A stretch of 64,000 nt of DNA from assembly GCA_002773135.1 (NCBI GenBank), contig PFCB01000028.1:4203-68202 (forward strand), given 5' to 3'. This document shows positions 9,256-41,154 of the stretch, piece by piece (positions within the stretch are counted from its first letter, which is position 1; each line of letters opens with the position of its first letter). The position numbers and the translations under genes were made by a program. The DNA is from Candidatus Magasanikbacteria bacterium CG10_big_fil_rev_8_21_14_0_10_47_10. Lineage in GTDB: Bacteria; Patescibacteriota; Patescibacteriia; Magasanikbacterales; UBA922. A model generated the notes under the pieces. The model saw only the letters and a program-made list of their open reading frames with translations. It was not told the origin of the DNA and made no database searches.

Positions 9256-9257
9256 AA

Positions 9258-9290
9258 CAAAACCCCGCCTCATCCGGAGGCGGGGTTTGT
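9258..9290. terminator. Bidirectional rho-independent terminator (CCCCGCCTC-ATCCG-GAGGCGGGG flanked by A-run and T-run)
   Basis: Perfect 9-bp GC-rich stem, A-tract 5' and TTTGT 3'; sits between convergent genes. Confidence 0.75.
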
Positions 9291-9360
9291 GCCCATAGTA
9301 CACCTGTTTCTATCACGGTTGTGTGATGGAGACAGGTGTTACCATGGGCAACTCCTTTTG

Positions 9361-16816: not shown

Positions 16817-16920
16817 TTATTATTTTTATTACTTATAGTAACAAATGATTTATTGTAATGAGCGCTGATGCGTGGGAAGCACACTGCACCAACGCCCCAA
16901 GCAAACCGCCGCAGAATGTC

Positions 16921-16941
16921 CTCTCCCCTTTTAGGGGAGAG
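16921..16941. repeat. Perfect hairpin CTCTCCCC-TTTTA-GGGGAGAG immediately upstream of the DUF559 gene
   Basis: 8-bp stem, 5-nt loop, seen directly. Confidence 0.6.
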
Positions 16942-16974
16942 ACAGAGAGAGGTACAATCAAGAAAGGAGGGAAT

Positions 16975-17406
16975 ATGCAACAACAGCACAACCGTGCTCG
17001 AAGCGACGAACTGAAAGCCCGACGCAGACAGTTGCGCCAAAAGCAAACGAAGGCTGAAAAAGTATTTTGGCAAGAAGTGCGCGCCTGCCGTACTGGGTAC
17101 CACGTCCGCAGGCAGCACAATATCAGCGCTTTTATCGTTGATTTTTACTGCCATGAGGTAGCTTTGATCATAGAACTCGACGGACCGATTCACCGATATA
17201 CAAAAGACTACGACCGTTGGCGGCAAGCAAAGCTTGAAAGCTGGGGCTATTATGTCATACGATATAACAACAACGAGGTTCTCTTTGACCGAGAGCGCGT
17301 ATTGAATGAGGTTCTTCTCTTCTGTGAAGTGTTGCGTATTTCGATGGCAGTGGCTTCTAGAACCTCTCCCTGTCCCTCTCCTTGCCCTTCGCTGCGCTCG
17401 GGGTGA
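16975..17406 (+). CDS. DUF559 (Vsr-like endonuclease-domain) protein
   Basis: Start at MQQQHNRARSDELKARRRQLRQKQT; core GYHVRRQHNISAFIVDFYCHEVALIIELDGPIHRY...WGYYVIRYNNNEV matches the DUF559 pattern (RRQ...DFyc...ElDG..H....D..R...L...G..V.R..N..V). Confidence 0.75.
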   Translation: MQQQHNRARSDELKARRRQLRQKQTKAEKVFWQEVRACRTGYHVRRQHNISAFIVDFYCHEVALIIELDGPIHRYTKDYDRWRQAKLESWGYYVIRYNNNEVLFDRERVLNEVLLFCEVLRISMAVASRTSPCPSPCPSLRSG

Positions 17407-17467: not shown

Positions 17468-19357
17468 ATGAACATCCTCCTCATCGGATCTGGCGCAAGA
17501 GAACATGCAATCGCCAGAGCTATAAAAAAATCAAAAATACACACAAGCCTGTTTTGTTTTGGAAGCTCAAGCAATCCAGGTATTTTTGCGCTTTCAACTG
17601 GCTACGCCACCGGCACGCTGACGGCAGTGAACGATATCCTCGCATACGCACAGCTCAACCGCATTGACTGGGCAATTATTGGGCCAGAGGCACCGCTTGC
17701 CGCCGGTGTGGTGGACGCGCTGGAAGATGCCGGTATCCCCTGCGTGGGGCCACGCAAGCAGCTGGCACAGCTGGAAAGCAGCAAATCGTTTACCCGAGAG
17801 CTGATGACAAAATACAACATCCCCGGCTGTCCCAAATATACATACTTCTCTTCGCTAGAAGGCGTAGCCACATTCCTCTCTGAGCTAGGTGACGCGTACG
17901 TGATTAAGGCAGACGGCCTGATGGGTGGTAAAGGTGTAAAGGTAGCTGGTGATCACCTGACAAGCCGATACCAGGCATATGATTGGTGCAAAGAACTGCT
18001 GCATGATGGCAAGACATTTTTGATAGAAGAAAAACTGGTTGGCCAGGAATTCTCCTTTATCAGCTTGAGCGACGGAAACAACCTGGCGCACACAATATGT
18101 ATTCAAGATCACAAGCGAGCATATGAGGGCGACACCGGCCCAAATACCGGAGGCATGGGAACATACTCAGATGCCAACCACTCCCTTCCTTTTTTGGAAT
18201 CATCTAACATTGCTGCTGCCAAGCATATAAACGCACTGACAGCCGAGGCACTTCGGCAAGAATTTGGCATGGGCTACCGCGGTGTCTTGTATGGCGGATT
18301 TATGGCCACGGCTGACGGAGTTAAATTAATTGAATATAATGCACGATTTGGCGATCCGGAAGCCATGAATATTTTTGCTCTTTTGGAATCTGACTTTGTT
18401 GAGGCGTGCATGGCAACAATAGAGGGCAGACTGACACAAAATCATATGCAATTCAGTCACAAAGCAAGTGTCTGCAAATATGCAGTACCAAACGGCTATC
18501 CGGATGCCCCTGTTGCGAATCAGTTGATTAACGTTGAAGCAGTAATGAATCCTGATGCCCTTTACTTTTCCGCAGTAGACCAAAAAGCGGACGGATTGTA
18601 TGAAACAGGATCGCGAACTATTGCAGTGGTAGGCATAGCTGATACAATATTATTAGCTGAAAATAGTGCTGAAGAGGAAGTACGTAGAATTCATGGTCCC
18701 CTATTTCATAGAGCAGATATAGGAACCAAATCACTGGTTGATAAACGCGTACAAATGATGCAAGATCTGCGTGGTACGGCTTCTGTTTCTCAAAAGATAC
18801 GAATTGCAGTACTCGGCTCTACTCGAGGCACCAGTCTGCAGCCTGTTATTGATGCAATTGAGCGAGGTGGGCTTCATGGCACGATTGAAGTGGTGATCAG
18901 CAATAACCCAAATGCGTACATTTTACAGCGCGCTGCGCATCACAGTATTCCAAGCATGTACATTGATGGAGCCGGCATGACTCGTGACGAATACGATCAA
19001 AAAATCATTACCGAGCTGTCCAATTATCAAATTGATATTATTTTGCTCATTGGCTATATGCGCATTCTCTCCCCCTCCTTTGTGAAAGCGTATTCGGGAA
19101 AAATTTTAAATGTCCACCCATCTCTGCTGCCAAAGTTTGCCGGGGGCATGGACCTGAACGTACACAAAGCCGTGATTGATGCGGGTGAAACAGAAACAGG
19201 CTGCACGATTCATATGGTTGATGAGGGTGTAGATACAGGCAAAATAGTGCGGCAAAAAAAATGCGGCGTTTCGCCACTCGATACGGCAGAAAGTTTGAAA
19301 GCAAAGGTCCAGGCATTGGAAGGAGAAGCATTTATAGAGGTGATAAAATACATATGA
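17468..19357 (+). CDS. Fusion protein: phosphoribosylamine-glycine ligase (PurD, GAR synthetase) + phosphoribosylglycinamide formyltransferase (PurN, GART)
   Basis: 629 aa; N-terminal MNILLIGSGAREHAIARAI... ATP-grasp PurD (~430 aa); C-terminal IRIAVLGSTRGTSLQPVIDAI...NVHPSLLPKFAGGMDLNVHKAVIDAGETETGCTIHMVDEGVDTG formyltransferase. Stop TGA overlaps purH ATG (ATGA). Confidence 0.85.
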   Translation: MNILLIGSGAREHAIARAIKKSKIHTSLFCFGSSSNPGIFALSTGYATGTLTAVNDILAYAQLNRIDWAIIGPEAPLAAGVVDALEDAGIPCVGPRKQLAQLESSKSFTRELMTKYNIPGCPKYTYFSSLEGVATFLSELGDAYVIKADGLMGGKGVKVAGDHLTSRYQAYDWCKELLHDGKTFLIEEKLVGQEFSFISLSDGNNLAHTICIQDHKRAYEGDTGPNTGGMGTYSDANHSLPFLESSNIAAAKHINALTAEALRQEFGMGYRGVLYGGFMATADGVKLIEYNARFGDPEAMNIFALLESDFVEACMATIEGRLTQNHMQFSHKASVCKYAVPNGYPDAPVANQLINVEAVMNPDALYFSAVDQKADGLYETGSRTIAVVGIADTILLAENSAEEEVRRIHGPLFHRADIGTKSLVDKRVQMMQDLRGTASVSQKIRIAVLGSTRGTSLQPVIDAIERGGLHGTIEVVISNNPNAYILQRAAHHSIPSMYIDGAGMTRDEYDQKIITELSNYQIDIILLIGYMRILSPSFVKAYSGKILNVHPSLLPKFAGGMDLNVHKAVIDAGETETGCTIHMVDEGVDTGKIVRQKKCGVSPLDTAESLKAKVQALEGEAFIEVIKYI

Positions 19358-27852: not shown

Positions 27853-29241
27853 TTACGCGTGCCCCCTTATAAACGGGCTTCCTACCGCTATCACGTCAAA
27901 CCCGGCATTCCGTAAATCAGCATACCGATGATGGAGCATCCGTCGACCATCCATAATAAGTGGTCGCGTTTGCAGTTCACTCACAATCACGTCTGCCAAA
28001 CCGCGAAACTGCGGCCAATCTGTGGCAATAATAATGACATCCGCATCTTTGACAGCATCAAACTCATGCGATGCATAGGTTCTTTTTTCTGTTTCAGCAA
28101 ACATGCTTTTGAACATATCCGATGCAGCAGGATCATAGAGCGACACATGTGATACGTTTTTTCCCTCCAAAAAATGCATGATATCAATACTTGGCGAATT
28201 GCGCGTATCGTTGGTATCACGTTTAAATGCAAGACCAAGCAAGGCAACACGTTTACCTGCCCAATCAAATCCCGCGTCCTTCTGCGCGCGACCTAAAAAT
28301 GTTTCCAACTGCCTTTTGTTGGCAATATAGGTTTCATTCACCAATACGGCTTCTTGCCCTGCTGTTTGCAATTGATGCGACAGTGACCGCGCATCTTTTA
28401 TAAAACAACTGCCGCCAGCGTACAGGCTATCGTAAAAACCCCACTTTCCAATTCTGTCGTCATTGATCAAAATACGACGCAAATTTTCAAATGATATTGC
28501 GTCAAACGCTTCTGCTGTACGACCAATCACATCAAAGCAAATTGCCAATTTATTAAACAAATAAAAATTCGCAAGCAGCTTTCCTGCAGCGGCTTCTTTT
28601 GGATTGACTTCAATATACTCAACATCAGGTGAATCATAAAAGCGTCTATAGACATTGCGCATAACATCAAAATCTTTTTCTTGCCACGCACCAACCACAA
28701 TTCTGTCTGGCTTCAGTGATCCCTGTATTGCCTTTCCCTCCACCAAAAATTCAGGGTTCGACACAACCCCCACATTGCGCACGCCTGCTTTATCCAAAAT
28801 TTCTTGCGTGTGATCAACCGTATCAATAGGAACCGTACTCTTATTTACAATAACAATATATTTTTGCTGTGCACCACCATCTCTTTTTGCAAGCGCAGTC
28901 GCGAGTTGCTCTGCCGCGCTATTGTAATACTCCATGTTGCTCTCTCCTGTTTCACCAATCTCCGGTGTTGGCAAACACATAAAAATAGCATCTACAGATG
29001 CCAAAAAATTCACTACATTGCTGTAGTCAGTTGTGAAGGCAATCCGCTCTTTATTGCGAACAAGCAAGTCGCCCAAACCTTTTTCAAAAAGACATGACTC
29101 TATGGTATCTCTGTCGCCAGAGGCAAGCATTTGAATCTTTTTCTGATCAATATCAAAAACAAGCGTGCTATGCCCACTGTCTGCTGCCACGGCCGCGCTG
29201 CACGCGCCGACAAATCCAGCACCAATATAAAGTATGTTCAT
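27853..29241 (-). CDS. UDP-glucose/GDP-mannose 6-dehydrogenase family protein (Ugd-like)
   Basis: Start at MNILYIGAGFVGACSAAV; UDPG_MGDP_dh N, central (GGSCFIKD catalytic Cys) and C domains. Confidence 0.8.
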   Translation of the reverse strand: MNILYIGAGFVGACSAAVAADSGHSTLVFDIDQKKIQMLASGDRDTIESCLFEKGLGDLLVRNKERIAFTTDYSNVVNFLASVDAIFMCLPTPEIGETGESNMEYYNSAAEQLATALAKRDGGAQQKYIVIVNKSTVPIDTVDHTQEILDKAGVRNVGVVSNPEFLVEGKAIQGSLKPDRIVVGAWQEKDFDVMRNVYRRFYDSPDVEYIEVNPKEAAAGKLLANFYLFNKLAICFDVIGRTAEAFDAISFENLRRILINDDRIGKWGFYDSLYAGGSCFIKDARSLSHQLQTAGQEAVLVNETYIANKRQLETFLGRAQKDAGFDWAGKRVALLGLAFKRDTNDTRNSPSIDIMHFLEGKNVSHVSLYDPAASDMFKSMFAETEKRTYASHEFDAVKDADVIIIATDWPQFRGLADVIVSELQTRPLIMDGRRMLHHRYADLRNAGFDVIAVGSPFIRGHA

Positions 29242-29363
29242 ATGAAGGATATAGTACATTTTGCAGCACTCTTCGTCAAGCAATTGCGCTAATATAAGGG
29301 AAAATATTGACTTTAGCAATTATGTATGGTATACACACAGTCAAATCAACAGGGGGTGAAATC

Positions 29364-30179
29364 ATGCGCAAGATCGTGAACATCATCATTTGGATTGTTG
29401 CCATTGGCCTGCTGGTCATCTACCCGCTTGTAAGCCGCGCGGATGAGGCGGCCGAGGCAGATGCCGACGAGGTGTCCGCGTTCGACAAGGGCTCAGCCCT
29501 GTTCGAAGCACGCGACTACGAGGCAGCAAAAGCTGCGCTGCTGAAAGTGATCGCAGACTCCGAGCTCACCCTAGGCCAGCGCGAGGAAGTACTCTTCATG
29601 CTCGGAGCGTCGTGCCACGAGCTTGGCAACCTCACATGCGCTGTCTTCTACTTGGAGAACTATCTCGCGATTGCAACAATCGCGAGCCCTCACCTCATTG
29701 AGGCGCGCAACCGCGTGAAGCGCATCAAGAATCCACCTCCACCTGTTGTCGAGGCTCCAAAGGAGGAGCCACTGCCTCCACCGGCAACCATGCCATCACC
29801 GGCAGAAGAGCACAAAGATGCGGAAGCATTGGCAAAGGCAGCTGAGCCAAGCCGAGGCATCATGCCGAACTGGTACGTATGGACACTGGGTGGAGCAGCT
29901 CTTGCCTGCGGAGTTGGAACAGTGGTGTACGGAGTCGAAGCGTTGAACCGCGAAAAGCAGACCCACTCACAGGACATCCAAAGCCGCGCCGAATATAGGC
30001 AACGCGTGGATGACATGGAGTCTGCGCAGACAGCCACGAACGTCTTCCTGCTCTCATCTGCTGTGCTTGGCGCCTCGGCCGGTGTGCTCTGGTGGCTGGA
30101 TCTGCGCGAATCCACACCATCGAACGCTCTTTCTCTCACCCCCACCCCTTCCGGCGCGACGCTTTCTGTCGCTTTCTAG
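29364..30179 (+). CDS. GC-rich island gene 1: membrane protein with N-terminal signal/anchor, TPR-like helical region, Pro-rich linker (KNPPPPVVEAPKEEPLPPPATMPSP) and C-terminal TM helix
   Basis: Start at MRKIVNIIIWIVAIGLLVIYPLVSRA preceded by GGGGGTG RBS; GC content rises abruptly here. Confidence 0.55.
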   Translation: MRKIVNIIIWIVAIGLLVIYPLVSRADEAAEADADEVSAFDKGSALFEARDYEAAKAALLKVIADSELTLGQREEVLFMLGASCHELGNLTCAVFYLENYLAIATIASPHLIEARNRVKRIKNPPPPVVEAPKEEPLPPPATMPSPAEEHKDAEALAKAAEPSRGIMPNWYVWTLGGAALACGVGTVVYGVEALNREKQTHSQDIQSRAEYRQRVDDMESAQTATNVFLLSSAVLGASAGVLWWLDLRESTPSNALSLTPTPSGATLSVAF

Positions 30180-30198
30180 CCGGCATGAGGCTGTCCAA

Positions 30199-30267
30199 AA
30201 GACCGCCCCATTCCCCTGTTATTCTGATCAAATCGGAATAAAAGGAGGAGATGGGCGGTCTTTTTTT
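30199..30267 (+). terminator. Structured terminator-like element: outer stem AAGACCGCCC/GGGCGGTCTT enclosing a 44-nt loop with inner stem TTATTC/GAATAA, followed by TTTTTTT
   Basis: Seen directly; AT-rich (host-like) composition unlike flanking coding DNA. Confidence 0.5.
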
Positions 30268-30327
30268 GCTAAAATTAGGTAAAAAAAGGAAAATACAAGA
30301 ATGTTCCCTATTCTTTCAGTCTTCATA

Positions 30328-30356
30328 TTGACAAAACCGCTTAATTATGCTAAATT
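30328..30356 (+). promoter_or_regulatory. Sigma70-like promoter (TTGACA - 17 nt - TAAATT) for the repeat-protein gene
   Basis: Consensus -35 hexamer and spacing; AT-rich intergenic. Confidence 0.45.
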
Positions 30357-30425
30357 ATCCTGTCTCGGTATACTAATATCGGACGTGTTTCTTACAACTC
30401 GCAGCCCTGTGGGCAAGGACAAGTC

Positions 30426-32639
30426 ATGAACCTCCGTAGCCTCGTCGGAATCGTTTTTTTCTTCAACTTCGCGGCGTGCATCGTGGGGGCGCCCGCCGGC
30501 GGCCCGGCTGAGTGCTACTCTGTCCGCGACTGCGCGGACAGCGGGCACTTCGCCTGCGTCAACGAGGAGTGCGTCGAGGTTGAGGACCCCGACGCCGATG
30601 TCAGCGGCAACGGCGGCGCGGGCGGCAGCATCGGCAGCCCGGACTTTGGTCCGGACGCCGAGCTGCCCGACATGATGGGCCCGCCCCCGTGCGAACCCGA
30701 CGTCGAGTGCGTTGTCCCCGATGCGCTCGGCCCGTGTGCCGATGGTGTCACGGTCTGCACCGAAGGCGGCGAGGTCTGCGATCCGGTCGCAACTCCGCAA
30801 GAGGAAGTGTGCGACGGCGTGGACAACAACTGCAACGGCGAGACGGACGAAGGCGACCTCGACAGGTCGTGCTTCTCCGGCAGGCCCGAGCAGATCGACG
30901 TCGGCATCTGCCACGCAGGCACCCAAGCCTGCGTCAACGGCGCCTACGGCGACTGCGACGGCGAGACCCTGCCCGAGCTCGAGGGCGACGTGCCCGACGG
31001 CGAGGACAACAACTGCGACGGATCCGCTGACGAGGGCTTCGACTGCCTCCCTGGCATCGAAGACCGCGAATGCGGCCGCTTGCAGGTTGGCACGTGCCGA
31101 CCCGGCCTTCAGTCCTGTCAGCCCGACGGAACCTGGAGCGATTGCGAGGGACAAACCCTCCCCGCGCCCGAGTTCTGCGATGGCATGGACAACAACTGCG
31201 ACGGCATGGTCGACAACAACGCCATGGACGCCGATGGTGTCTGCGCCCTGGGCACTGGTGCATGCGTGCGCCAAGGCCTCGGAATCTGCTTCGATGGCAG
31301 AATCATCTGCAACGCGGTCCCGGGAGTTCCGGGGACCGAGCGCTGCAGCGACAACATGGACAACGACTGCGACGGCCAGATCGATGAAGGCTTCCCCGAC
31401 CTGGGAATGGCCTGCGAGGCCGGCATCGGCGAGTGCGCTCGTCAGGGCACACTCGTCTGCGCGGGCGATCGACTCGCCTGCAGCGCGGTTCCAGGACAGA
31501 CCGCCGCCGAGATCTGTGACGGACTCGACAACGACTGCGACGGTGAGACAGACGAGGACATGCTGGGCAACCCGCTGTCCCAGCTGTGCTACACCGGCCC
31601 TGTCGGGACTCAAGGCGTTGGACTGTGCCGCACCGGCGTACAGACCTGCCAGAACAGTCGCTTCGGCGACTGCCTCGGGCAGGTCCTGCCAGTGCAGGAA
31701 CAGTGTGGCGACGGAAACGATGAAGACTGCAACGGCATGATCGACGAGTCCTGCTGCGACCCCAGCCCCGAGATCTGTAACGGTCGCGACGACGACTGCG
31801 ACCGCCAGATCGACGAGGGCAACCCGGGTGGCGGCGCGGCCTGCGACACCGGACAGTTCGGACTCTGCGGACCCGGCACCATGACCTGCCAGAACGGACA
31901 GGTCGAGTGTGCCGGCGTGGATCCGGCTGCCGAGATCTGCGATGGTCTGGACAACGACTGCAACGGTGAAGTCGACGATGGCTTCAACGTAGGAGCGGCC
32001 TGCGCGGTCGGCATCGGTCTGTGCGAACGCACCGGCCGCATTGCTTGCCAGGCCGGCTTGGCCGCGTGCGACGCGGTCCCGGGACAGCCCGCCGTCGAGA
32101 TCTGCAACGGACTCGACGACGACTGCGACGGGATGGCCGACGAACACAACGTGCCGCTGGTGCAAGACGGAGACCTCTCGGTCTACACCTGCTCCCCCGA
32201 CTTCGTGGTGCAGGATCTCGGAGGCGGTCAGTTTCTGCGGATCGACCGCAACAGTCAGCCCATCCTCCAGCAAGCCGCGGCGGCCAACGCCTGCGCGGCG
32301 CGGGGCATGCGCCTCCCCACCATCGCAGAGCTGCGGTCGTGGATCGAGGGCTGCCCGACTACGGAAACGGGCGGTGCCTGCCGCATCACAGACGCGGCTG
32401 GCTGTGCCGGCCTTGCCGCTTGCGAGGACCGGGCGAACTGCCAGTGCGCCGCGGCCATGGGGCCGGCTGCCGATGGCTGCTACTGGGCAGCCGGCGTCTG
32501 GCAGGGCGAGTGCAGCCAGAACTGGAGCAGCCGCGTTGATGGCGCCTACGCCATCGCGGCAGTCTTCATCTCCGGCCGCGTCACCGGGTACCAACCACAG
32601 CCCTACGCCTACCGTTGCGTGGCCCCCGGCCTGCCCTAA
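30426..32639 (+). CDS. GC-rich island gene 2: secreted lipoprotein (lipobox FAAC) with ~9 Cys/Asp-rich CDGxDNDCDGxxDE(G) repeats (MopE-type putative metal-binding / thrombospondin-type-3-like Ca-binding motif) and a C-terminal ~170-aa lectin-fold/DUF1566-like domain (GMRLPTIAELRSW)
   Basis: 737 aa; repeats CDGVDNNCNGETDEG, DGEDNNCDGSADEGF, CDGMDNNCDGMVDNN, CSDNMDNDCDGQIDEGF, CDGLDNDCDGETDED, CGDGNDEDCNGMIDES, CNGRDDDCDRQIDEG, CDGLDNDCNGEVDDGF, CNGLDDDCDGMADEH; strongly C-ending codons. Confidence 0.7.
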   Translation: MNLRSLVGIVFFFNFAACIVGAPAGGPAECYSVRDCADSGHFACVNEECVEVEDPDADVSGNGGAGGSIGSPDFGPDAELPDMMGPPPCEPDVECVVPDALGPCADGVTVCTEGGEVCDPVATPQEEVCDGVDNNCNGETDEGDLDRSCFSGRPEQIDVGICHAGTQACVNGAYGDCDGETLPELEGDVPDGEDNNCDGSADEGFDCLPGIEDRECGRLQVGTCRPGLQSCQPDGTWSDCEGQTLPAPEFCDGMDNNCDGMVDNNAMDADGVCALGTGACVRQGLGICFDGRIICNAVPGVPGTERCSDNMDNDCDGQIDEGFPDLGMACEAGIGECARQGTLVCAGDRLACSAVPGQTAAEICDGLDNDCDGETDEDMLGNPLSQLCYTGPVGTQGVGLCRTGVQTCQNSRFGDCLGQVLPVQEQCGDGNDEDCNGMIDESCCDPSPEICNGRDDDCDRQIDEGNPGGGAACDTGQFGLCGPGTMTCQNGQVECAGVDPAAEICDGLDNDCNGEVDDGFNVGAACAVGIGLCERTGRIACQAGLAACDAVPGQPAVEICNGLDDDCDGMADEHNVPLVQDGDLSVYTCSPDFVVQDLGGGQFLRIDRNSQPILQQAAAANACAARGMRLPTIAELRSWIEGCPTTETGGACRITDAAGCAGLAACEDRANCQCAAAMGPAADGCYWAAGVWQGECSQNWSSRVDGAYAIAAVFISGRVTGYQPQPYAYRCVAPGLP

Positions 32640-32722
32640 CCCACTTCTTCCATTTTTCCCTGGAAGTCCGCCACGGCGGACTCGGGAACCTACCAAGGAG
32701 CGCCTCTCTTCATGTTGAAGAG

Positions 32723-32756
32723 GGGCACAAACAAAAACCCGCCTTATAAAAGGCGG
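32723..32756. terminator. Bidirectional rho-independent terminator AAAAACCCGCCTT-ATAA-AAGGCGGGTTTTT
   Basis: Perfect stem, A-tract and T-tract. Confidence 0.8.
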
Positions 32757-32853
32757 GTTTTTGTTTGTACATACCGTTGACAAACACGCTTTTTTTTGCT
32801 AAAGTTTGCAGGCAAATTGCTGTCCAATTCGGACGGCAGCGCATGGAGGAACT

Positions 32854-33645
32854 GTGTCCGATCATCCGATCAAGAGCGCCGCGCACGACGCGGCGGAGAA
32901 GTTCACCCGAGACGGCCGACCGGCAGATGGGGTGGTCTACCGCGCCGTCCTGCCGGACAGCCGATCGAGCAGCTACTTCACCAGCTTCGGCTTCCAAGGC
33001 GTGGGGATGACCGCCCTTGGGTACCAGGTCGTGATGACCAGCTACTTCGAACCCATGATCAGAATGGGAGCGATCACGGGCTGGCGCGACAACGCCCCGC
33101 GCTACATCTATGCCCTGAGGGGAGGTGAGGCCATCGCGTGGACCGAGCTGGGTTGTCTGGCCAAGAAGGGCCAGAGCCAGCAGGAGAAGGTCCGCCTCTT
33201 CCCCGGCATCATGCCGGGCAGCGGCGCTGCGCGCGCCCAGACCGTCATGATGGACGCAGGCGGCACGCTCTGGCTGACGCGCAACGGAGAGACCGACCGC
33301 TTCTACCGCCTGGTCAAGACCGAGAGCGGCAGCTGGCGGCACATCGAACCGGTCATCCTGCAGGGACGACACACGGGGTGCTACATCGAGGCTGCCTCCA
33401 TGAGGAGCGATCACATCGCCGTGATCCGCTCGCGCCAAGATGGCACTCCGGCCTGGATGGAATCCTACGGGTTCAACGGTCGCTTTATTCCGGGCGCAGC
33501 CGACGAAGGACCCCGCACCCCTTGGCTGTACGGGTTGACCTTCCGAGCCGGCGATCCGGAACCATGGACCGTGATCGATACCACCACGCGCAAGGCCACG
33601 GTGCCGCGCGGCATCTACCGCGGCACCAAGTTGGTGCGGCGGTAG
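32854..33645 (+). CDS. GC-rich island gene 3: hypothetical cytoplasmic protein (no signal peptide), unknown family
   Basis: GTG start 7 nt after GGAGG RBS chosen; alternative ATG at 32806. Complex (non-low-complexity) amino-acid composition, in contrast to the antisense ORF. Confidence 0.4.
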   Translation: MSDHPIKSAAHDAAEKFTRDGRPADGVVYRAVLPDSRSSSYFTSFGFQGVGMTALGYQVVMTSYFEPMIRMGAITGWRDNAPRYIYALRGGEAIAWTELGCLAKKGQSQQEKVRLFPGIMPGSGAARAQTVMMDAGGTLWLTRNGETDRFYRLVKTESGSWRHIEPVILQGRHTGCYIEAASMRSDHIAVIRSRQDGTPAWMESYGFNGRFIPGAADEGPRTPWLYGLTFRAGDPEPWTVIDTTTRKATVPRGIYRGTKLVRR

Positions 33646-33864
33646 ATGCCGCGCGGCACCGCCCTCGCCTTCCTGCCCAATGGCGACCTGCTGGTCCTGC
33701 AGTACCGCCATGGCCATGGCGCCTTTGGCCGACCCGGCCGACTGGCCATCGTCAGCGCGGGCGCCCTTCCACCGCCGGTGTGACATGTTCCACCGCCTAC
33801 CGCATGGGGACTGGCCATCCCCTTCCATTCAATGCGTAGAATACATATTGTATTCATTGAAAAC

Positions 33865-33896
33865 AAAACACCGCCCTCTCTGAGGCGGTGTTTTGT
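33865..33896. terminator. Bidirectional terminator AAACACCGCC-CTCTCTGA-GGCGGTGTTTTGTTT
   Basis: 10-bp stem with A-tract and T-tract; marks the right edge of the GC-rich island. Confidence 0.75.
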
Positions 33897-33908
33897 TTCT
33901 TAAAATAT

Positions 33909-34787
33909 TTATTGCAAGTAGTACCCCAAAAGCAGACAAATAGCACCAACACCACCAACCACCATGCCAATGACATCACGCTTGCGCACCTGCCGCGCTT
34001 CACGAAAAATGTACAACCCTACCATCACTGCGCCCAGCGTATAAAAAAACGCTTGCAATGGATAAAGGACTGTCGCTGGATACACAAGCAGCGCATAGTA
34101 CACCGATGAAAGCGACCCGACAATGCACAGTGACAACAATACTGAGTGCGCGTAAACCTTCTTTCCTCGCATCAAACTCCAATCGCGCTCTACGATACGC
34201 GGCACAAATGATCCTGCGCACCCCCCAATGTACCACGATGTGACGTAGGTAATTAATGGGATCCCCTTTACCGCAAAAAAATTAACCAAAAAATTGATCA
34301 CACCGACCACTAACACAAACCCGACCAGAGCGAATAGCCAGTCCTTTTGCTCTTGTGAGCGATCGGTCGATGATTTTTTATAAAATAATGTAATGGCCCC
34401 GAGTGTTGCCAGGACGCCGACCCAAACAAGCGCGCCAGGAGCTGTCCGAAAATCAAAAAACGCCCATTCTCCCAAAAAAAGAGCACTCAGTCCGACGGCC
34501 AAGCCATTGATGAAAGGCAAGAATAAAATTGTCTTCGACAAACTCAGATGAACACCCCGAGCAAAAAACCACGCCCCGATTGCGTTGAATGCTCCTATCA
34601 AAAAAACCGGTAAGAGAACCGGAACACTTTGGGTAAAGAAAAAAGCGATCATCGTGACGAGCAAGGCAGACCAAATATACATGGTATTCACCACCACGCT
34701 CGCCTTGTGCCGCGCAAGAAGCTTTTTATTGAAATACTGACTAACGATTGCCGCGAGAATTCCAAGGACAAAAATGACAGGCACCAT
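33909..34787 (-). CDS. Polytopic membrane protein (~9-10 TM; DMT/EamA-like or polysaccharide-associated permease), last gene of long minus-strand operon
   Basis: 292 aa, almost entirely hydrophobic helices. Confidence 0.4.
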   Translation of the reverse strand: MVPVIFVLGILAAIVSQYFNKKLLARHKASVVVNTMYIWSALLVTMIAFFFTQSVPVLLPVFLIGAFNAIGAWFFARGVHLSLSKTILFLPFINGLAVGLSALFLGEWAFFDFRTAPGALVWVGVLATLGAITLFYKKSSTDRSQEQKDWLFALVGFVLVVGVINFLVNFFAVKGIPLITYVTSWYIGGCAGSFVPRIVERDWSLMRGKKVYAHSVLLSLCIVGSLSSVYYALLVYPATVLYPLQAFFYTLGAVMVGLYIFREARQVRKRDVIGMVVGGVGAICLLLGYYLQ

Positions 34788-37180: not shown

Positions 37181-39544
37181 TTATTGCGTATTACGAACAG
37201 TCCGCGGCGCGACAATGTCACCCTCGAGTGACGCGACAATTGCGTCAATTGATTCAAAAGACGCCAACATATCACACGCTCGGTCAAATACGGTCAAAAA
37301 TTCATCCACGTGTTCACGGGTATGCAAATAACTCAGAAGCACGGAGCTTGTAAATAAGATACCGGATTTATGCAAGTGTTCATATACAAATGTTTTGTAC
37401 ACGCGCGCTTCATAGTCATCTTGCAACTGAATGGTCATGACCGGATGCGGTCCGCAACCGCTCAATATGATTGGAACCTCATACTTCCGGGCAATCGCGT
37501 TGCCCCGGTCTATCATGTATTGACCAATATCAAATAAGTGGGAATGCACATCACCAAACTCCCTCATCATGGCAATGGTTTCCAGGGCGGCGACCATCCC
37601 GGGAACATAGCCCCCAAAGGTTGTGGAGACAAATACTTCATCCATCCGGCGCATATATTCCGCTTTCCCGCAAATGGCGGACAAAGGAAATCCCCCTGAA
37701 ATAGCTTTCCCAAAACACCCTATGTCTGGCGTCACACCATAATACTCCTGCGCGCCACCCAACGCCCATCGAAACCCTGTGACCATTTCGTCAAAGATAA
37801 GCAGCGCACCGTGCGCGTGCGCTATTTCCTTTATTTTTGCAAGAAAATCATCGGTTGGATGCTCGGATGATGCAGGCTCCAGTATAACCGCGCAAATTGA
37901 GTCCGGATTCTCCCGAAATATTTTTTCCAATGACGCCGGATTGTTGTACTCAAAATCATGTGTCATTGTTTTTATACTCTCTGGCACGCCATTGCTGCGC
38001 CCGGCCTTCGTGCAAATACTCCAGTCTTGCCAGCCATGATAGCCGCACTTTGCAACGTGATCTCGGCCGGTCACATATCGTGCGAGACGGATGGCGCCGC
38101 TTGTCGCGTCATTACCATTGATTAAAAAACGGCTCATTTCCGCACAAGGTACGACCTCTCGTAAAACAGTGGCCAACTCCAATTCTTTTTCCGATGGCAA
38201 TGAAAAAATAGTGCCGCGGTCAATTTGTTCTTTCACCGCCGTATTTATTCTGTTATGCGCGTAACCAAATACCATGGGACCCAGCGCCATCAGAAAGTCG
38301 AGATACTTATTTCCGTCCGCATCCCATATATGCACGCCCTGCGCGCGTGCAATCGTAAGCGGCGTTACCCCCACCACAAACTGCGTTGGTGTTTTGCTCA
38401 ATGTCTGCGATGCCCCCGGGATATATTGTTGTATTTCTTTTAATTGTTCTCGTTTGTCCATATGAATTTGCGGCGTAAAGTAAGTGATTTCATCAAACGC
38501 CGTTAAAAATTTTGTGATATCTCCAGCCCAGGCGCTATCGGTTTTCGTATACATCTCCCGCAAGACATAAAGCGTTTTAATCAAAAAATCATCCAATATA
38601 AGCACGTGCAAAAGATCCTTCTCTTGGCGCGCCAGTGGCATTTCTGCTTCATACGCGCTCAAAAATATTTTGGTCAAAGACAGCGCTGTTGTCGCAACAT
38701 CTGCAGTGGACTGATCAACAAAAAATTGCCTGCCAAACCGATAGATCGCAAACGCGACATCACGCGCACGCTGACTCACGCGCAGTGCGTCAAAATCAAG
38801 AATCGCCGCGAGCGTATCTCCTTTCATGATCACGTTGTGAGGATGCAAATCAGAATGAATAATTTGCGTTGGTAGCGCGTCGATCTTGGCTCTGTTGGCA
38901 TCAACACGGACAACAGCGGCGCGGAGCGCCGGCATGGACGCTATGACCATTTCATCTGTCTGAGTGCGCACGTCCTTCTGCTCTATGTGCTCCGCAATTT
39001 CTACAAAATCTTTCTCTGTATAGGATGGTATGACATTAAAATATGCCTTTGTCTGTTTACTATGGCCTTCAATATCAGAAGCAAGAGTGGCCTCTAATCC
39101 CGCCAGCCCCTTGTGGACCTTTGCGACTGCCATGGCAACAGACGCCAGAGCCTCCTGCGTTGGAACAAAATGAGATCCATCAATAAAACGGAATACGGTG
39201 TACAATATGCCGTGACGCTGAACATATCCCTGCCCGTCAATGGTTTTAATGGCTTCACTTACAGGAATGCCCAGATCCATCAGCGCCTCCACAACCGACA
39301 TATATCTGCGAACTTGCGCTTCGCTATCAATCAGTTGATTTCTTCGCACCAGCAATGTTTCGTTCTCAAGTACCACCTTGTAGTTGCTCGAATTTATTTC
39401 ATTTCTACTCAATTGCGTAATATCGTGAATACCACCATTCTTTCCATACGCAGCCAAAATTTCAGCAAACATGCCCCAGTCCCCGGCATACGGCTCGTAG
39501 GTGATCAGCGGGTCAGAAAAATTGTCTTTTGGGAATACTGTCAT
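37181..39544 (-). CDS. Bifunctional fusion: N-terminal APH/choline-kinase-like small-molecule kinase + C-terminal class III (PLP) aminotransferase (GSA-aminomutase-like)
   Basis: 787 aa; kinase catalytic motif IIHSDLHPHNVIM and DFD; aminotransferase-III motifs GVHIWDADGNKYLDF, LIFDEMVTGFR, CFGKAISGG (Lys). Confidence 0.75.
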   Translation of the reverse strand: MTVFPKDNFSDPLITYEPYAGDWGMFAEILAAYGKNGGIHDITQLSRNEINSSNYKVVLENETLLVRRNQLIDSEAQVRRYMSVVEALMDLGIPVSEAIKTIDGQGYVQRHGILYTVFRFIDGSHFVPTQEALASVAMAVAKVHKGLAGLEATLASDIEGHSKQTKAYFNVIPSYTEKDFVEIAEHIEQKDVRTQTDEMVIASMPALRAAVVRVDANRAKIDALPTQIIHSDLHPHNVIMKGDTLAAILDFDALRVSQRARDVAFAIYRFGRQFFVDQSTADVATTALSLTKIFLSAYEAEMPLARQEKDLLHVLILDDFLIKTLYVLREMYTKTDSAWAGDITKFLTAFDEITYFTPQIHMDKREQLKEIQQYIPGASQTLSKTPTQFVVGVTPLTIARAQGVHIWDADGNKYLDFLMALGPMVFGYAHNRINTAVKEQIDRGTIFSLPSEKELELATVLREVVPCAEMSRFLINGNDATSGAIRLARYVTGRDHVAKCGYHGWQDWSICTKAGRSNGVPESIKTMTHDFEYNNPASLEKIFRENPDSICAVILEPASSEHPTDDFLAKIKEIAHAHGALLIFDEMVTGFRWALGGAQEYYGVTPDIGCFGKAISGGFPLSAICGKAEYMRRMDEVFVSTTFGGYVPGMVAALETIAMMREFGDVHSHLFDIGQYMIDRGNAIARKYEVPIILSGCGPHPVMTIQLQDDYEARVYKTFVYEHLHKSGILFTSSVLLSYLHTREHVDEFLTVFDRACDMLASFESIDAIVASLEGDIVAPRTVRNTQ

Positions 39545-39939
39545 ACAGCTGAATAGTCCGCCTCTGAATATGAATCCGCTTTTGCCGGATCAAATAGCGT
39601 CGCACGATATTCAATGAATATCACATCTGTCAGGGCCTCCATTTCATGGTATACATCCTTTTCAATTATCACATACGACATTGGATCAATATCCTGGCGC
39701 AGATCCTCCCCTTTTCTATTTTTTGCATACAATCGAATTTGTCCGGAAATCAAAAAAAATAGCTCCGGATCTTTTGAAGGATCAATGCCGGTATGGAAAT
39801 GATTTGCAAATGTACTGCCCTGCTTTCGCGTATACAGCGTCACTTGCTTGCCGGGAAGATTCCGGAACAACTCAAAAACATCACCACGATCATCCGATGG
39901 GCTGTTTGAGACACCCTTTGTGATGGTAATGCCTTTCAT
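39541..39939 (-). CDS. Cupin-fold protein (WxcM/FdtA-like sugar 3,4-ketoisomerase-type domain)
   Basis: Start at MKGITITKG; motif SDDRGDVFELF...HFH resembles DxRGxLxxxE...HAH of FdtA/WxcM cupins. Confidence 0.5.
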   Translation of the reverse strand: MKGITITKGVSNSPSDDRGDVFELFRNLPGKQVTLYTRKQGSTFANHFHTGIDPSKDPELFFLISGQIRLYAKNRKGEDLRQDIDPMSYVIIEKDVYHEMEALTDVIFIEYRATLFDPAKADSYSEADYSAV

Positions 39940-39940
39940 A

Positions 39941-40696
39941 TTAGGTGTTGAGCGCCTCCTTAAAAAACTGCATGTTTTTGACATCATTTGACAATCCATC
40001 CTGCTTGGGTGTTTCAAAAACGAGCTGCGCATCTGATTGAATAAATCGGTTATTCAACTCGCTGCGAACCCAGGCAGCGTCAATGCGGCTCTCCCACAAA
40101 TTTGTATGCTCATCCACGGCATGAGATATGTCGCCTCCGGAAATATGAAAATATGTTGGCTTCAACGCATCCAAGCAGTCTGCTACAAATGTTTTGTAAT
40201 CAAGCCCTTGATAGACCGCCGCTTTTGCTGCCTTTTCAAAATCAAAGCAAATTGGTTTGACTGCGGCGATCTGCTTAAGCTGTTCAAGCGTTTGTGCGTA
40301 CATTGGCTGCTCGTTGGTATCAAGACCTGCCATGTTTTCTATCAGAATGCGCGGATCATCAATCCTCTCCAGCTCATGAAAAAATGATTCAAACGTATGA
40401 TTCTGCCCGGGATGAACAATAATCTTCTGCGCGCCCAGATAATCAGCAAGCCGTCTGGTTCCCTCCCATATTTTTAATTGCTCGGGGCCAATCATGAACT
40501 CGTGAAATCCGCTTGTATGGGTATGATGAATTTCAACTGGCACCTCTTGGAGCGAGTCAAAATGTTCCATTTCATCAGCGGATCCCGGGTTGTGGTACAG
40601 TTCAATAAAATCAACAATCCCTTTCTTGTATAGCAAAACGGCCTCTGTAAAAAGGTCTTTATTATTGGTCCAAAGCTTTAATCCGTACTTAATCAT
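39941..40696 (-). CDS. Xylose-isomerase-like TIM-barrel (sugar phosphate isomerase/epimerase family) protein
   Basis: Start at MIKYGLKLWT; His/Glu-rich barrel pattern (EIHHTHTSGFHE, HPG); family assignment tentative. Confidence 0.4.
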   Translation of the reverse strand: MIKYGLKLWTNNKDLFTEAVLLYKKGIVDFIELYHNPGSADEMEHFDSLQEVPVEIHHTHTSGFHEFMIGPEQLKIWEGTRRLADYLGAQKIIVHPGQNHTFESFFHELERIDDPRILIENMAGLDTNEQPMYAQTLEQLKQIAAVKPICFDFEKAAKAAVYQGLDYKTFVADCLDALKPTYFHISGGDISHAVDEHTNLWESRIDAAWVRSELNNRFIQSDAQLVFETPKQDGLSNDVKNMQFFKEALNT

Positions 40697-41154
40697 ACAG
40701 GAATAGCTTTGGTCATGTGCAGCCACGCATCATCACGCGTCCGTTCCGTAAAGCCATATTTGGAAAGAAGCCTTTGCGAGCCACTGTTTGTACGAGAAAC
40801 AATCGCGTGAATCTCTGCTCCCTTCTGCATCATGGCAAGCGTTTCTCCAAGAAGCCGCGAGCCCACGCCTTGCCCATGATATGCAGGATCAAGGGCAATG
40901 GAAAGCACATACGATCCATCATTATCAACATCATATCGGCAATACCCGATGACCTCAGCCGCAGTACGCATCACATAACAACGATTGAGCCCGCCACCTA
41001 TATATGCCTTGGTAAACCACTGAATGTGGTTTGAAAGAGCCGGTATCTCTTTGGTCCGTGCAAAGGCATTCACTTCCGAAGAATACCGAATACGCCAGAC
41101 AGCCTCTGCATCATCCGCGTTTGCTTCATCGATTGTCATTTGAGCAGGCTCCAT
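40693..41154 (-). CDS. GNAT N-acetyltransferase (PseH-like candidate)
   Basis: 153 aa; acetyl-CoA motif QGVGSRLLGETLAMMQ; position between aminotransferase and NeuB-like synthase. Confidence 0.6.
   Translation of the reverse strand: MEPAQMTIDEANADDAEAVWRIRYSSEVNAFARTKEIPALSNHIQWFTKAYIGGGLNRCYVMRTAAEVIGYCRYDVDNDGSYVLSIALDPAYHGQGVGSRLLGETLAMMQKGAEIHAIVSRTNSGSQRLLSKYGFTERTRDDAWLHMTKAIPV

Follow-up and report, generated by a model that had tools for sequence, protein, structure and literature searches.

Bacterial surface proteins in which an elongated stalk carries a lectin-like head have been described in Legionella, Bdellovibrio and Myxococcus. In the Legionella pneumophila adhesin Lcl, a collagen stalk is tipped by a C-terminal domain (Lcl-CTD) that has zero disulfides and binds sulphated glycosaminoglycans through a Lys/Arg patch (PMC11162425). 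In Bdellovibrio bacteriovorus, the C-terminal domain of the MAT fibre protein Bd2740 is a lectin-fold tip lacking a Ca/sugar motif, which ends the long prey-recognition fibre by which this predator recognises bacteria (PMC10769870). For TraA of Myxococcus xanthus, a cell-cell recognition receptor with a PA14 head, TIGR04201 repeats and MYXO-CTERM, a Cys-rich tandem-repeat 'rigid stalk' has been proposed to hold the lectin-like head (PMC3325183).

A second group of comparable systems concerns the building of such stalks. The teneurin C-rich domain, thrombospondin type-3 repeats and LDL-receptor class A modules are short disulfide-locked modules with acidic D-x-D/N-x-D-G Ca2+ loops. The linear motif Dx[DN]xDG binds Ca2+ in a near-identical manner across many protein families (PMC3123361), and the crystal structure of the teneurin Cys-rich domain contains three Ca2+ ions coordinated by acidic residues and three disulfides, with a Ca2+ geometry that is both TSP3-like and LA-like (PMC9058538). 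The teneurin Cys-rich motif has been aligned with the consensus of PF11617 (Tucker et al.; PMC3278476), a family which carries the Pfam name Cu-binding_MopE and is also referred to as the 'MopE-related' repeat. The Cu(I) site of MopE* itself consists of His132, His203 and kynurenine130 (PMC3423442).

The 737-aa protein considered here combines features of both groups. It is encoded in the MAG of a CPR bacterium with a tiny genome (Candidatus Magasanikbacteria) at positions 30426..32639 (+ strand, stop codon included) of the window, meaning the whole 64,000-nucleotide stretch of DNA that was analysed. With a probability of roughly 0.55, it is a stalk-and-head protein that is exported to the cell surface or secreted, most likely an adhesin, whose gene was transferred from a high-GC Myxococcota-like donor.

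Gene and N-Terminal Region

The open reading frame starts with ATG and is present where the preliminary description had placed it; its product (P0001) is identical to the NCBI entry 'hypothetical protein COU35_03840 [Candidatus Magasanikbacteria bacterium CG10_big_fil_rev...]'. The GC contents at its three codon positions (0.68/0.52/0.83) are those usual for a coding frame in high-GC DNA. On the opposite strand, an 812-aa open reading frame (30345..32783, - strand) has values of 0.80/0.52/0.66 that mirror the sense frame, and a Pfam search with it returned zero matches, while homologs of the sense-strand protein number in the thousands. These observations identify it as a shadow ORF and not a gene, in agreement with the earlier advice against annotating it.

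The sequence of the first 24 residues (30426..30497, + strand) is that of an N-terminal signal sequence with a hydrophobic core, a segment that is disordered in the AlphaFold2 model (pLDDT 35). The core is followed by Cys18 within a non-canonical lipobox, NFAAC, or alternatively by A-P-A at residues 22-24 as a putative site for signal peptidase I. Owing to the Asn at position -4 and the Phe at -3, NFAAC conforms to none of three standard patterns (PROSITE PS51257, G+LPPv2 and the classic [LVI][ASTVI][GAS]C) and is accepted only when the pattern is relaxed to allow Phe at -3. Good lipoboxes are present in the homologs P0040 and P0121 and in the L058 protein. The designation as a lipoprotein, made at the outset, is consequently unproven, and the protein may be either membrane-tethered or secreted, with display at the cell surface as the presumed outcome.

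The remainder of the N-terminal region (residues 25-124; 30498..30797, + strand) was delimited from the sequence, the AlphaFold2 model and the Cys count. It contains a 4-Cys module (C30-C49) modelled at pLDDT 72-84, then an acidic Gly/Pro-rich linker at approximately residues 50-88 (pLDDT 30-40), and is closed by a 5-Cys hairpin segment.

The Repeat Array

Pfam matches, unit alignment and the structural model together define an array of nine PF11617 units at residues 125-573 (30798..32144, + strand). The Pfam match comprises 9 stretches with 121.7 bits (E = 1.3e-35) against a gathering score of 27 bits, which substantiates the MopE-type motif proposed from inspection. Every unit contains a C-x-G-x-D-N-D-C-D-G-x-x-D-E loop of the Dx[DN]xDG type, to which seven of the nine add a 4-Cys beta-hairpin module. 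The D[NDE][ND]C[DN] cores lie at residues 133, 194, 255, 312, 368, 432, 455, 509 and 564, giving spacings of 61, 61, 57, 56, 64, 23, 54 and 55 residues. The initial count of about nine evenly spaced Cys/Asp/Asn/Gly repeats has therefore held, save for one short unit. The repeats are also detectable at the DNA level, as 8-10 copies with 61-83% identity. In the AlphaFold2 model the array consists of folded beta-hairpin modules (pLDDT 75-96), so that the strong family match is accompanied by an ordered model, the opposite of the disordered, unmatched sequence that had been named as the contrary outcome.

The protein has 69 Cys in total, with 68 of them downstream of Cys18, a number that would permit 34 disulfides. 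In an alignment of 60 homologs the repeat Cys and Asp columns are near-invariant, and the array Cys are conserved in even numbers, for which reason disulfides are expected. The computed net charge of the whole protein is about -102 and its pI about 4.05. Absence of Lys was considered as a special feature and rejected, being a family-wide trait (median 0.4% Lys).

Searches for other relationships of the array gave negative results. At E <= 1, a Pfam search with the whole protein matched only PF11617, with none for TSP_3 (PF02412), Ldl_recept_a (PF00057) or EGF-type families, and the thrombospondin type-3 resemblance put forward in the preliminary description is not borne out as family membership. 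An NCBIfam search at E <= 0.001 returned no family, including TIGR04201, the TraA-type Myxococcus Cys-rich repeat. PDB sequence searches with the whole protein, a 56-residue unit profile and a 25-residue motif profile recovered no chain, LA modules included, and a Foldseek comparison of the complete model with PDB structures gave no match below E = 2. As the unit and motif profiles find no PDB chain, the searches do not establish homology to the modules of teneurin, TSP or LDLa; the Cys spacing of the array differs from theirs and the likeness is at the motif level only.

The loops nevertheless follow the calcium pattern. Strict Dx[DN]xDG matches occur in five of the nine units and in eight if position 5 may also be Asn, and one unit carries Arg instead of Gly in this loop. 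By analogy with the characterised motif, the stalk loops probably bind Ca2+.

The closest relatives of the array are PF11617 proteins of Myxococcota (for example the Sandaracinus, Polyangiaceae and Myxococcales MAG proteins P0004, P0016 and P0114), which share the unit, that is, the same acidic loop and 4-Cys hairpin, and are 35-43% identical to the array. Like the 737-aa protein, these relatives are extremely Lys-poor, acidic and exported, often with a lectin-type domain at the end. The protein differs from these homologs in being encoded by a CPR bacterium and is shorter, with nine units where many of them have more.

The C-Terminal Head

The array is followed by a 164-aa domain (residues 574-737; 32145..32636, + strand) that phmmer, profile searches and modelling characterise as a divergent Lcl_C/DUF1566 domain with a Cys-rich insert. 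It has 11 Cys and an MRLPTIAEL motif. The Pfam match of the head to Lcl_C (PF07603) covers positions 32-116 of the 117 in the profile and, at 15.4 bits (E = 0.023), stays under the gathering score of 34.9 bits. A phmmer search with the head against 1.84 billion representatives gave 1,441 matches at E <= 0.001, with a best non-self E of 1.9e-32 and E = 1.9e-32 to 1e-25 for Pfam-confirmed Lcl_C proteins. All ten top matches tested are Lcl_C (Pfam E = 1e-32 to 1e-91), and PF07603 is carried by the homologs P0121 and P0122. When the signature motifs of Lcl_C (GLxWQ, W..A..YC, WRLPT..EL, YWSS, AW.V.F..G and VRCVR) are compared, the C-terminal ones are present in the head in degenerate form (MRLPTIAEL, NWSSR, AIAAVFISG and YRCVA), and the N-terminal GLxWQ and W..A..YC have been replaced.

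A head family profile matched a single PDB entry, the Lcl-CTD (8Q4E; E = 0.012), aligning at the WRLPT..EL and YWSS...VRxVR motifs. A three-sequence head profile gave Tctex matches alone, which were judged spurious. The first full model had a head pLDDT of about 30, which a deeper alignment raised to 85.4 with a pTM of 0.81. In a Foldseek search with this AlphaFold2 model, the top 50 PDB matches were almost all CTLD, Link-module, intimin or FGE folds, every one at E >= 0.04. The best was the Bd2740 C-terminal domain (8OKS; probability 0.98, TM 0.65 on target); at 12% sequence identity and a Foldseek E of 0.1, homology between the two is not established. The phmmer, profile and model results together agree with the earlier suggestion of a DUF1566-like domain, and the head, as modelled, is a divergent member of this family with a C-type-lectin-like fold.

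By analogy, the design of the protein is comparable to those of Lcl, Bd2740 and TraA. The likeness to Lcl is that of an exported surface protein with an elongated repetitive stalk and a C-terminal Lcl_C head. The stalk in Lcl is a collagen triple helix and that of Bd2740 a trimeric fibre, whereas here it is a Cys-rich array of Ca-type repeats. The heads also differ, that of the 737-aa protein having 11 Cys and a Cys-rich insert where Lcl-CTD has no disulfide. Lacking Lys altogether and being negatively charged overall, the head cannot bind polyanions as Lcl does. TraA, from the presumed donor phylum, has a different repeat family, a different head family and the reverse polarity, with an N-terminal head and a C-terminal anchor. 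Among the matches listed (119 other repeat homologs and 151 Lcl_C relatives), the 737-aa protein is alone in joining a PF11617 array to an Lcl_C head. In the search for a donor or ortholog, L089 proved to have a head of FGE type and not Lcl_C. The broader design of repeats plus a lectin-fold head recurs in homologs with PF03781 or PF00059 heads.

Expression Signals and Genomic Context

A sigma-70-type promoter-like site lies upstream of the gene at 30328..30356 (+ strand), consisting of TTGACA, a 17-nt spacer and TAAATT with a TG extended -10. It agrees at 10 of 12 positions plus the TG, is among the two best matches within 27-36 kb and is 81% identical to a site at 32777 (DNA repeat family D9); across the window, the degenerate promoter pattern has 4 occurrences where 0.36 would be expected. 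A Shine-Dalgarno-like AAGGA (30415..30419, + strand) is found 6 nt ahead of the ATG. Downstream, a host-style intrinsic terminator (32727..32768, + strand) forms a perfect 19-bp hairpin between A and T tracts, with a folding energy of -30.1 kcal/mol (z = -6.6) and a design shared with the host terminator at 9254 and a terminator at 33860. Judging by these sequence signals, the gene is apparently intact and ready for expression.

The gene belongs to a GC-rich island of about 4.5 kb (29307..33838), delimited by composition and located inside the surface-polysaccharide/glycan and capsule locus of this genome. The island bears two further ORFs, which like the gene itself are monocistronic units, ORF1 (29364..30179, + strand) and an ORFan (32854..33645, + strand) in which an in-frame TAG is followed by 45 further sense codons. 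A GC-rich non-coding tail (33662-33838) completes the island. The GC3 of ORF1, the 737-aa gene and the ORFan is 0.63, 0.83 and 0.82, respectively, compared with 0.35-0.55 in the flanks. The foreign ORFs are parted by host-style AT-rich spacers, each ORF with its own promoter and terminator.

Homolog taxonomy points to the source of the gene. Myxococcota or 'Deltaproteobacteria' account for 17 of the 21 organism-named repeat homologs and for approximately half of the 80 head-domain loci found, the remainder of the latter being mostly unclassified. As the nearest named relatives of both halves of the protein are Myxococcota or 'Deltaproteobacteria', horizontal acquisition from a high-GC Myxococcota-like donor is well supported. 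The same taxonomy, together with the contrast in GC3, confirms the first impression of a Myxococcota-like protein foreign to this genome.

Within the window, the borders of the island showed neither an integrase or transposase nor direct repeats flanking it, and there was no phage match. The match to a 'MopE-related protein' gene on a Sandaracinus plasmid extends over 56 bp and is at the motif level only. A reading of a 63-nt palindrome as an integron cassette was dropped, an IntI gene and attC-like R'/R'' cores not being evident. In Uhrbacteria, a MopE-repeat gene is located beside a large serine recombinase and adjoins homologous sugar-nucleotide genes. A conserved pairing of ORF1 with the MopE-repeat gene was rejected, the resemblance of the Uhrbacteria upstream ORF being weak (E = 0.07). 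Three deltaproteobacterial/Myxococcales homolog loci had no neighbour in common, and a tblastn search of all the loci compared, with ORF1 and the ORFan as queries, returned nothing. It is tempting, though speculative and rather doubtful, to picture the island as more than a simple insertion, namely as the product of gene-by-gene capture or promoter-terminator 'cassetting' by which CPR bacteria take up foreign genes for surface proteins into a hypervariable glycan locus, with Magasanikbacterium recruiting a predator-type (Myxococcota) stalk-and-lectin adhesin for attachment to its host cell and the Uhrbacteria locus as a second instance.

Proposed Function and Alternative Explanations

In the proposed mechanism, the gene would have come by horizontal transfer from the high-GC donor; it shares the surface-polysaccharide locus with two more ORFs of foreign origin, and each of the three lies between a promoter and a terminator of host style. 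The signal sequence would export the protein, which a putative lipidation of Cys18 may tether to the membrane, and the flexible acidic linker would come next. A stalk of about 450 residues, built of nine small modules each with an acidic Dx[DN]xDG-type loop and putative disulfide-locked beta-hairpins, would hold the Lcl_C head at its far end, where the head may have as its ligand a glycan or protein carried by another surface. Adhesion, and with it the kind of ligand, is what we infer from this architecture.

The earlier account had offered metal scavenging or adhesion as possible functions, and of these adhesion is the better supported. Scavenging of copper or another transition metal for uptake is suggested by the Pfam name and the strong PF11617 match, by the surface location and copper repressibility of full-length MopE (PMC3423442), and by the abundant Cys and Asp, which could in principle chelate metals. 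The sole characterised copper site in MopE*/CorA, nevertheless, consists of a pair of His together with a kynurenine that derives from Trp, residue types missing from the PF11617 motif, and the 3 His and 5 Trp of the whole protein occupy none of the conserved repeat positions. Cys conservation in even numbers is what disulfides predict, the acidic O-donor loop is a hard-metal (Ca2+) site, and the PDB chains missed by the unit and motif profiles include MopE*/CorA, which together make such scavenging very improbable. A Ca2+-dependent structural protein of the envelope or matrix without a specific ligand, acting as an anionic spacer, calcium buffer or biofilm-matrix component and using the head for oligomerisation only, would suit the strongly negative charge, the nine acidic loops and the position of the gene within a surface-glycan and capsule locus. 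This explanation is unlikely, given that all characterised stalk-borne heads of this fold (Lcl, Bd2740, intimin and collectins) bind, and that homologs keep the stalk and exchange the head for other lectin-type domains. Such swapping of heads on a constant stalk argues for a modular binding tip.

Two further explanations concern the gene rather than the protein. It might be a recently transferred passenger without function in its host, either unexpressed or unfoldable in an anaerobic, monoderm-like CPR cell. The un-ameliorated GC3 of 0.83 is consistent with this, as are the decay-like state of the neighbouring ORFan, the very high predicted disulfide demand, and the outcome of searches in which no ortholog of the same architecture was found among the homologs listed or, with the repeat-9/head junction, in the JGI metagenomes. 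For a CPR bacterium of an anoxic aquifer, a protein that needs some 34 disulfides may be hard to fold, and no thiol-oxidase gene was seen within the 64-kb window. Against this stand the intact 2.2-kb ORF, the promoter, ribosome-binding and terminator signals described above, and two related proteins encoded by other Patescibacteria MAGs, namely the L058 lipoprotein of the same Lcl_C subtype at native GC and the Uhrbacteria MopE-repeat protein (P0040); a functionless passenger thus appears improbable. An assembly or binning artefact, by which a GC-rich segment of a Myxococcota-like genome was mis-joined into a CPR contig, would account for the abrupt jump in composition. Yet a Logan contig (L001) from a different assembler is 100% identical to window positions 28582-33762, reproducing the left junction and the whole interior. 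It ends about 75 bp short of the right junction, so that this independent confirmation stops at the interior, and the chimera is accordingly rejected for the left junction and interior only. The host genes on both flanks are uniform in composition and share a functional class, and the high-GC ORFs alternate with AT-rich spacers whose signals, promoters as well as terminators, match those of the host (the terminator at 9254, for instance), a pattern impossible for a chimeric join. An artefact is thus hardly credible, and transfer of an adhesin gene is preferred.

Significance

Both domain families and the stalk-plus-head design were already known, and current understanding is not overturned; as the component families are familiar, the protein is a modest rather than surprising find. 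To our knowledge, no member of the very large family of PF11617 repeat proteins has been characterised experimentally. With nine units and one head, the 737-aa protein is a compact representative of thousands of relatives, mostly in Myxococcota. Binding of Ca2+ by the repeats, if true, would correct the Pfam name 'Cu-binding', which is unsupported for the PF11617 motif. The donor-like coding sequence set between host-like spacers poses a small puzzle on how foreign genes are wired into reduced genomes. Attachment to other microbes is the way of life of cultivated CPR/Patescibacteria, and beyond type IV pili its means are little understood. For Magasanikbacterium, the stalk-and-lectin protein described here is a concrete, testable candidate for an adhesin.

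Architecture of the repeat protein

The open reading frame at 30426..32639 on the forward strand begins with ATG and encodes 737 aa, as the preliminary description had proposed, and its product is recorded as 'hypothetical protein COU35_03840' on a contig of 95 kb that belongs to a MAG of Candidatus Magasanikbacteria. A single family is recognized in the protein by Pfam, PF11617 (Cu-binding_MopE, 'putative metal-binding motif'), which covers nine stretches with a score of 121.7 bits against a cut-off of 27 bits (E = 1.3e-35), bearing out the MopE-type repeats that had been described. A signal sequence (residues 1-24) is followed by an N-terminal region (residues 25-124) with a small 4-Cys module, an acidic Gly/Pro-rich linker that is disordered in the AlphaFold2 model and a 5-Cys hairpin segment, then by the PF11617 array of nine units (residues 125-573) and a C-terminal head domain (residues 574-737). 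The nine D[NDE][ND]C[DN] cores, at residues 133, 194, 255, 312, 368, 432, 455, 509 and 564, are spaced 54-64 residues apart with the exception of one 23-residue half-unit, and the DNA of the gene is likewise repetitive (8-10 copies, 61-83% identity). The protein contains 69 Cys, 82 Asp, 107 Gly and zero Lys, with a predicted charge of about -102; the absence of lysine is a trait of the whole family, the median content of the homologs being 0.4%.

Export of the protein is very likely and lipidation only possible. The candidate lipobox, NFAAC, fails PROSITE PS51257, G+LPPv2 and the classic pattern, and the reading as a canonical lipoprotein is not supported. The 812-aa antisense frame at 30345..32783 (-) has no Pfam match and a codon-position GC that mirrors the sense frame; it is therefore a shadow ORF, as had been suspected.

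Predicted fold and putative metal binding of the repeat array

In an alignment of the units, seven of nine show a 'C-x-G-x-D-N-D-C-D-G-x-x-D-E' loop and, behind it, a hairpin segment with four Cys, which exists in short and long variants. An AlphaFold2 model based on a 61-sequence alignment depicts the array as a string of beta-hairpin modules with pLDDT values of 75-96. The array is therefore not disordered low-complexity sequence; such disorder, combined with the lack of a repeat-family match, was the outcome that the preliminary description had set against its own reading. Cysteine columns are nearly invariant across homologs and exactly 68 Cys follow Cys18, an even count which fits an all-disulfide protein with predicted pairing.

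Two metals have to be considered for these units. A MopE-type copper function, which the family name suggests, is not supported, because the Cu(I) site known in MopE* and CorA is formed by two His and one kynurenine (PMC3423442), only three His occur in the entire protein, and no chain among the PDB sequences, MopE*/CorA included, matches the whole protein, the unit profile or the motif profile. PF11617 also spans only a small part of MopE/CorA and is considered to lack specificity for these proteins. Regarding calcium, the motif core fits the Dx[DN]xDG loop strictly in five of the nine units, and in eight if position 5 may also be Asn; this loop serves to bind Ca2+, almost identically, in no fewer than a dozen unrelated families (PMC3123361). 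The PF11617 consensus has been aligned to the teneurin Cys-rich motif (PMC3278476), and the crystal structure of the teneurin Cys-rich domain contains three Ca2+ on acidic residues and three disulfides, with a Ca2+ geometry that is thrombospondin-type-3-like and LDLR-A-like (PMC9058538). Structural Ca2+ is present in MopE* and CorA as well. From the motif and by analogy, we infer that the units are probably small modules stabilised by Ca2+ and locked by disulfides, which together would make up a stiff stalk. Membership in TSP_3 itself, a family that the repeats had been said to resemble, is not supported, since neither TSP_3 nor LDLa was found in the protein with Pfam.

The C-terminal head domain

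When searched alone, the 164-aa head scores 15.4 bits (E = 0.023) with Pfam Lcl_C/DUF1566, which is below the cut-off of 34.9 bits. It is nonetheless filed as a divergent Lcl_C superfamily member with a predicted C-type-lectin-like fold, because phmmer, family profile and fold evidence agree beyond the Pfam score. An exhaustive phmmer search over 1.84 billion cluster representatives gave 1,441 matches at E <= 0.001, the top non-self match having E = 1.9e-32, and the ten top matches that were examined all proved to be strong Lcl_C proteins, in which the domain often occurs several times in tandem. The two nearest word-indexed relatives (P0121 and P0122) are Lcl_C proteins of ~270 aa with lipoprotein-like N-termini, and have in common the motif block WRLPTISELRSLIRGCPxTxTGGACRVTD...GPAADGCYW. 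An alignment of 48 family sequences displays the usual DUF1566 signature with a Cys-rich insert; in the present head, the C-terminal DUF1566 motifs are degenerate but present, and the N-terminal ones are lost. The profile made from these 48 sequences has a sole match in the PDB, 8Q4E (E = 0.012), which is the C-terminal domain of Legionella Lcl. A head model with a deeper alignment reached pLDDT 85.4 and pTM 0.81, and its Foldseek matches in the PDB, each of them weak (E >= 0.04), nearly all have folds of the C-type-lectin-like, Link-module, intimin or FGE classes, the best being the C-terminal domain of Bdellovibrio Bd2740 (probability 0.98, TM 0.65 on target). The DUF1566/C-type-lectin-like ending that had been guessed from the sequence was thus correct.

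A 495-aa protein of Patescibacteria group bacterium SO_2017_LW4_132 (locus L058, 1311-2798), with a good lipobox and TSP3-like D-rich stretches (DMDGDEIPNADDADIDGDGFLNANDV), has a head of this Lcl_C subtype with the Cys-rich insert (Pfam 51.8 bits). Its gene has the native GC of ~47%, and this head type is therefore in use by other CPR bacteria.

Genomic context and origin of the island

The gene lies within an island of 4.5 kb (~29307-33838) with 60-73% GC, in a window with ~45% GC, bordered by a UDP-glucose dehydrogenase gene (27853-29319) on the left and a membrane-protein gene (33909-34787) on the right. GC3 values of its three ORFs are 0.63, 0.83 and 0.82, against 0.35-0.55 in 25 flanking genes. 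An independent Logan assembly is identical (100%) to window positions 28582-33762, which confirms the left junction and the island interior; the right junction at ~33838 is beyond its end. Myxococcota or 'Deltaproteobacteria' labels are carried by 17 of the 21 repeat homologs with an organism name and by about half of 80 genome loci with the head domain, most of the remaining loci being unclassified. Horizontal acquisition from a Myxococcota-like donor, already suggested from the sequence, is the straightforward reading of the GC3 contrast and these labels; no specific donor can be named, because the best identities are only 35-45%.

In the 271-aa product of the first island ORF (29364-30179, +; GC3 0.63), a weak TPR-like region and a linker rich in proline accompany a signal or anchor sequence, and the C-terminal part is a TM-helix-TM segment; the product may be a partner protein. 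For a 263-aa ORFan (32854-33645, +; GC3 0.82), 5.8 billion proteins contained no homolog besides itself. The TAG stop of the ORFan is central in a 63-nt near-perfect palindrome (33599-33661; z = -10.8, -69.6 kcal/mol) and 45 further codons of the frame are open beyond it, which suggests either that a nonsense codon has interrupted the gene or that the hairpin is a terminator of donor type; next comes a GC-rich non-coding stretch of ~180 nt (33646-33838).

Each island ORF is predicted to be its own unit, with a sigma-70-like promoter, a Shine-Dalgarno sequence and a strong hairpin terminator (z-scores -6.6 to -7.6). Promoters of the TTGACAAA...TGCTAAA type occur in the island, where sites lie at 29307, 30328 (TTGACAAAACCGCTTAATTATGCTAAATT, extended -10) and 32777 (TTGACAAACACGCTTTTTTTTGCTAAAGT, extended -10); the sites at 30328 and 32777 share 81% identity and score highest within 27-36 kb. 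AT-rich, host-like spacers carry these elements, at 30180-30425 and 32640-32853 (and also at 29307-29363 and 33839-33908). The first two have GC contents of 41.5% and 49.5%, with a lowest 200-nt window of 37%, against a host intergenic mean of 45%; in a control of 27 high-GC loci (160 kb), no locus had a minimum below 42%, the median of the minima being 54%. The terminator after the gene (32729) is an A-tract/CCGCC...GGCGG/T-tract of the same design as a host terminator at 9254, 20 kb away, which the terminator at 33861 also resembles. Amelioration cannot account for the spacers, because the coding GC3 is still 0.83; the genes may have been captured one at a time behind host signals, or recombination or an unusual donor may be responsible.

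The one other repeat homolog with a CPR label is found in Candidatus Uhrbacteria (locus L002, JAZDHL010000052.1), with a raised gene GC3 of 0.70. It follows a sugar-nucleotide dehydrogenase and an epimerase, the latter 50% identical to that of the window, and a low-GC (0.41) segment beside it (within 6787-9766) encodes a large serine recombinase (Resolvase/Recombinase/Zn_ribbon_recom), an arrangement which hints at integrative elements as the vehicle of such genes into CPR glycan loci. A 325-aa ORF upstream of the Uhrbacteria repeat gene (8789-9766) has a C-terminal architecture like that of the first island ORF, with weak similarity (E = 0.07).

On the left, the island is preceded by three sugar-nucleotide genes and a block for de novo purine/GMP synthesis, and on the right genes for nonulosonic acid, glycosyltransferases, capsule and ABC exporters occupy ~30 kb. 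The purine/GMP pathway (3832-25269) is apparently complete, with folD, purA, purL, purM, purB, purF, purH, IMPDH and guaA. Two of its proteins are fusions, one of 908 aa (10973-13699) with GATase_5, SAICAR synthetase and AIR carboxylase domains and one of 629 aa (17468-19357) in which a GAR synthetase domain is joined to a formyltransferase domain; in the block, a 182-aa DUF559/REase_MTES_1575-type endonuclease-like ORF (16858-17406, +) is inserted. To our knowledge, most CPR bacteria are devoid of nucleotide biosynthesis, and a complete pathway would be unusual in a CPR genome. On the right, a 786-aa protein (37181-39544, -) in which a class-III aminotransferase is fused with a phosphotransferase domain of the APH type sits in a nonulosonic-acid/glycan cluster with NeuB, DegT, PseB-like, GNAT and UDP-GlcNAc 2-epimerase genes. 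Two overlapping ORFs at 39541-40726 (-) may be one flippase-type gene broken by a frameshift; the ORF at 39541-40032 is a Polysacc_synt_C fragment, and that at 39941-40726 has no Pfam match.

Functional implications

The protein, in which PF11617 repeats are joined to a lectin-like head of the Lcl_C family, adds a member to known kinds. The pairing of repeats and Lcl_C head is absent in the other 119 listed repeat homologs and in 151 Lcl_C relatives, and a metagenome scan with the junction region yielded no second instance. Other lectin-type heads are joined to the repeat stalk in several homologs, with FGE-sulfatase (PF03781) in P0032, P0089, P0090, P0106, P0114 and L089 and Lectin_C in P0092, and this argues for a modular binding tip. 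In L089 (JGI metagenome contig Ga0113563_10393420), the MopE-type repeats end in ...CNGLDDDCDGMADE, identical to repeat 9 of the present protein, and an FGE-sulfatase-like head takes the place of Lcl_C, which illustrates head swapping on a conserved stalk.

By analogy, an exported long repetitive stalk with a distal lectin-fold head is the design of known adhesins. Legionella Lcl carries a DUF1566 head on a collagen stalk and binds glycosaminoglycans (PMC11162425), Bd2740, a MAT fibre of Bdellovibrio that takes part in prey entry, ends in a tip with a lectin fold (PMC10769870), and Myxococcus TraA has a PA14 head on a 'rigid stalk' of Cys-rich repeats (PMC3325183). Unlike that of Lcl, the present head has no Lys and is net negative, and therefore cannot copy the polyanion binding of Lcl. 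Taken together, the observations of the preliminary description were confirmed and its interpretation was supported in part, with the exceptions of copper, TSP_3 and canonical lipoprotein status. We consider the chance that the protein is a Ca2+-stabilised stalk-and-head adhesin to be slightly better than even (about 0.55), the domain assignments being much firmer than this functional reading. Two aspects merit further attention, namely the host-style wiring of foreign ORFs and the part that the protein may play in CPR attachment.
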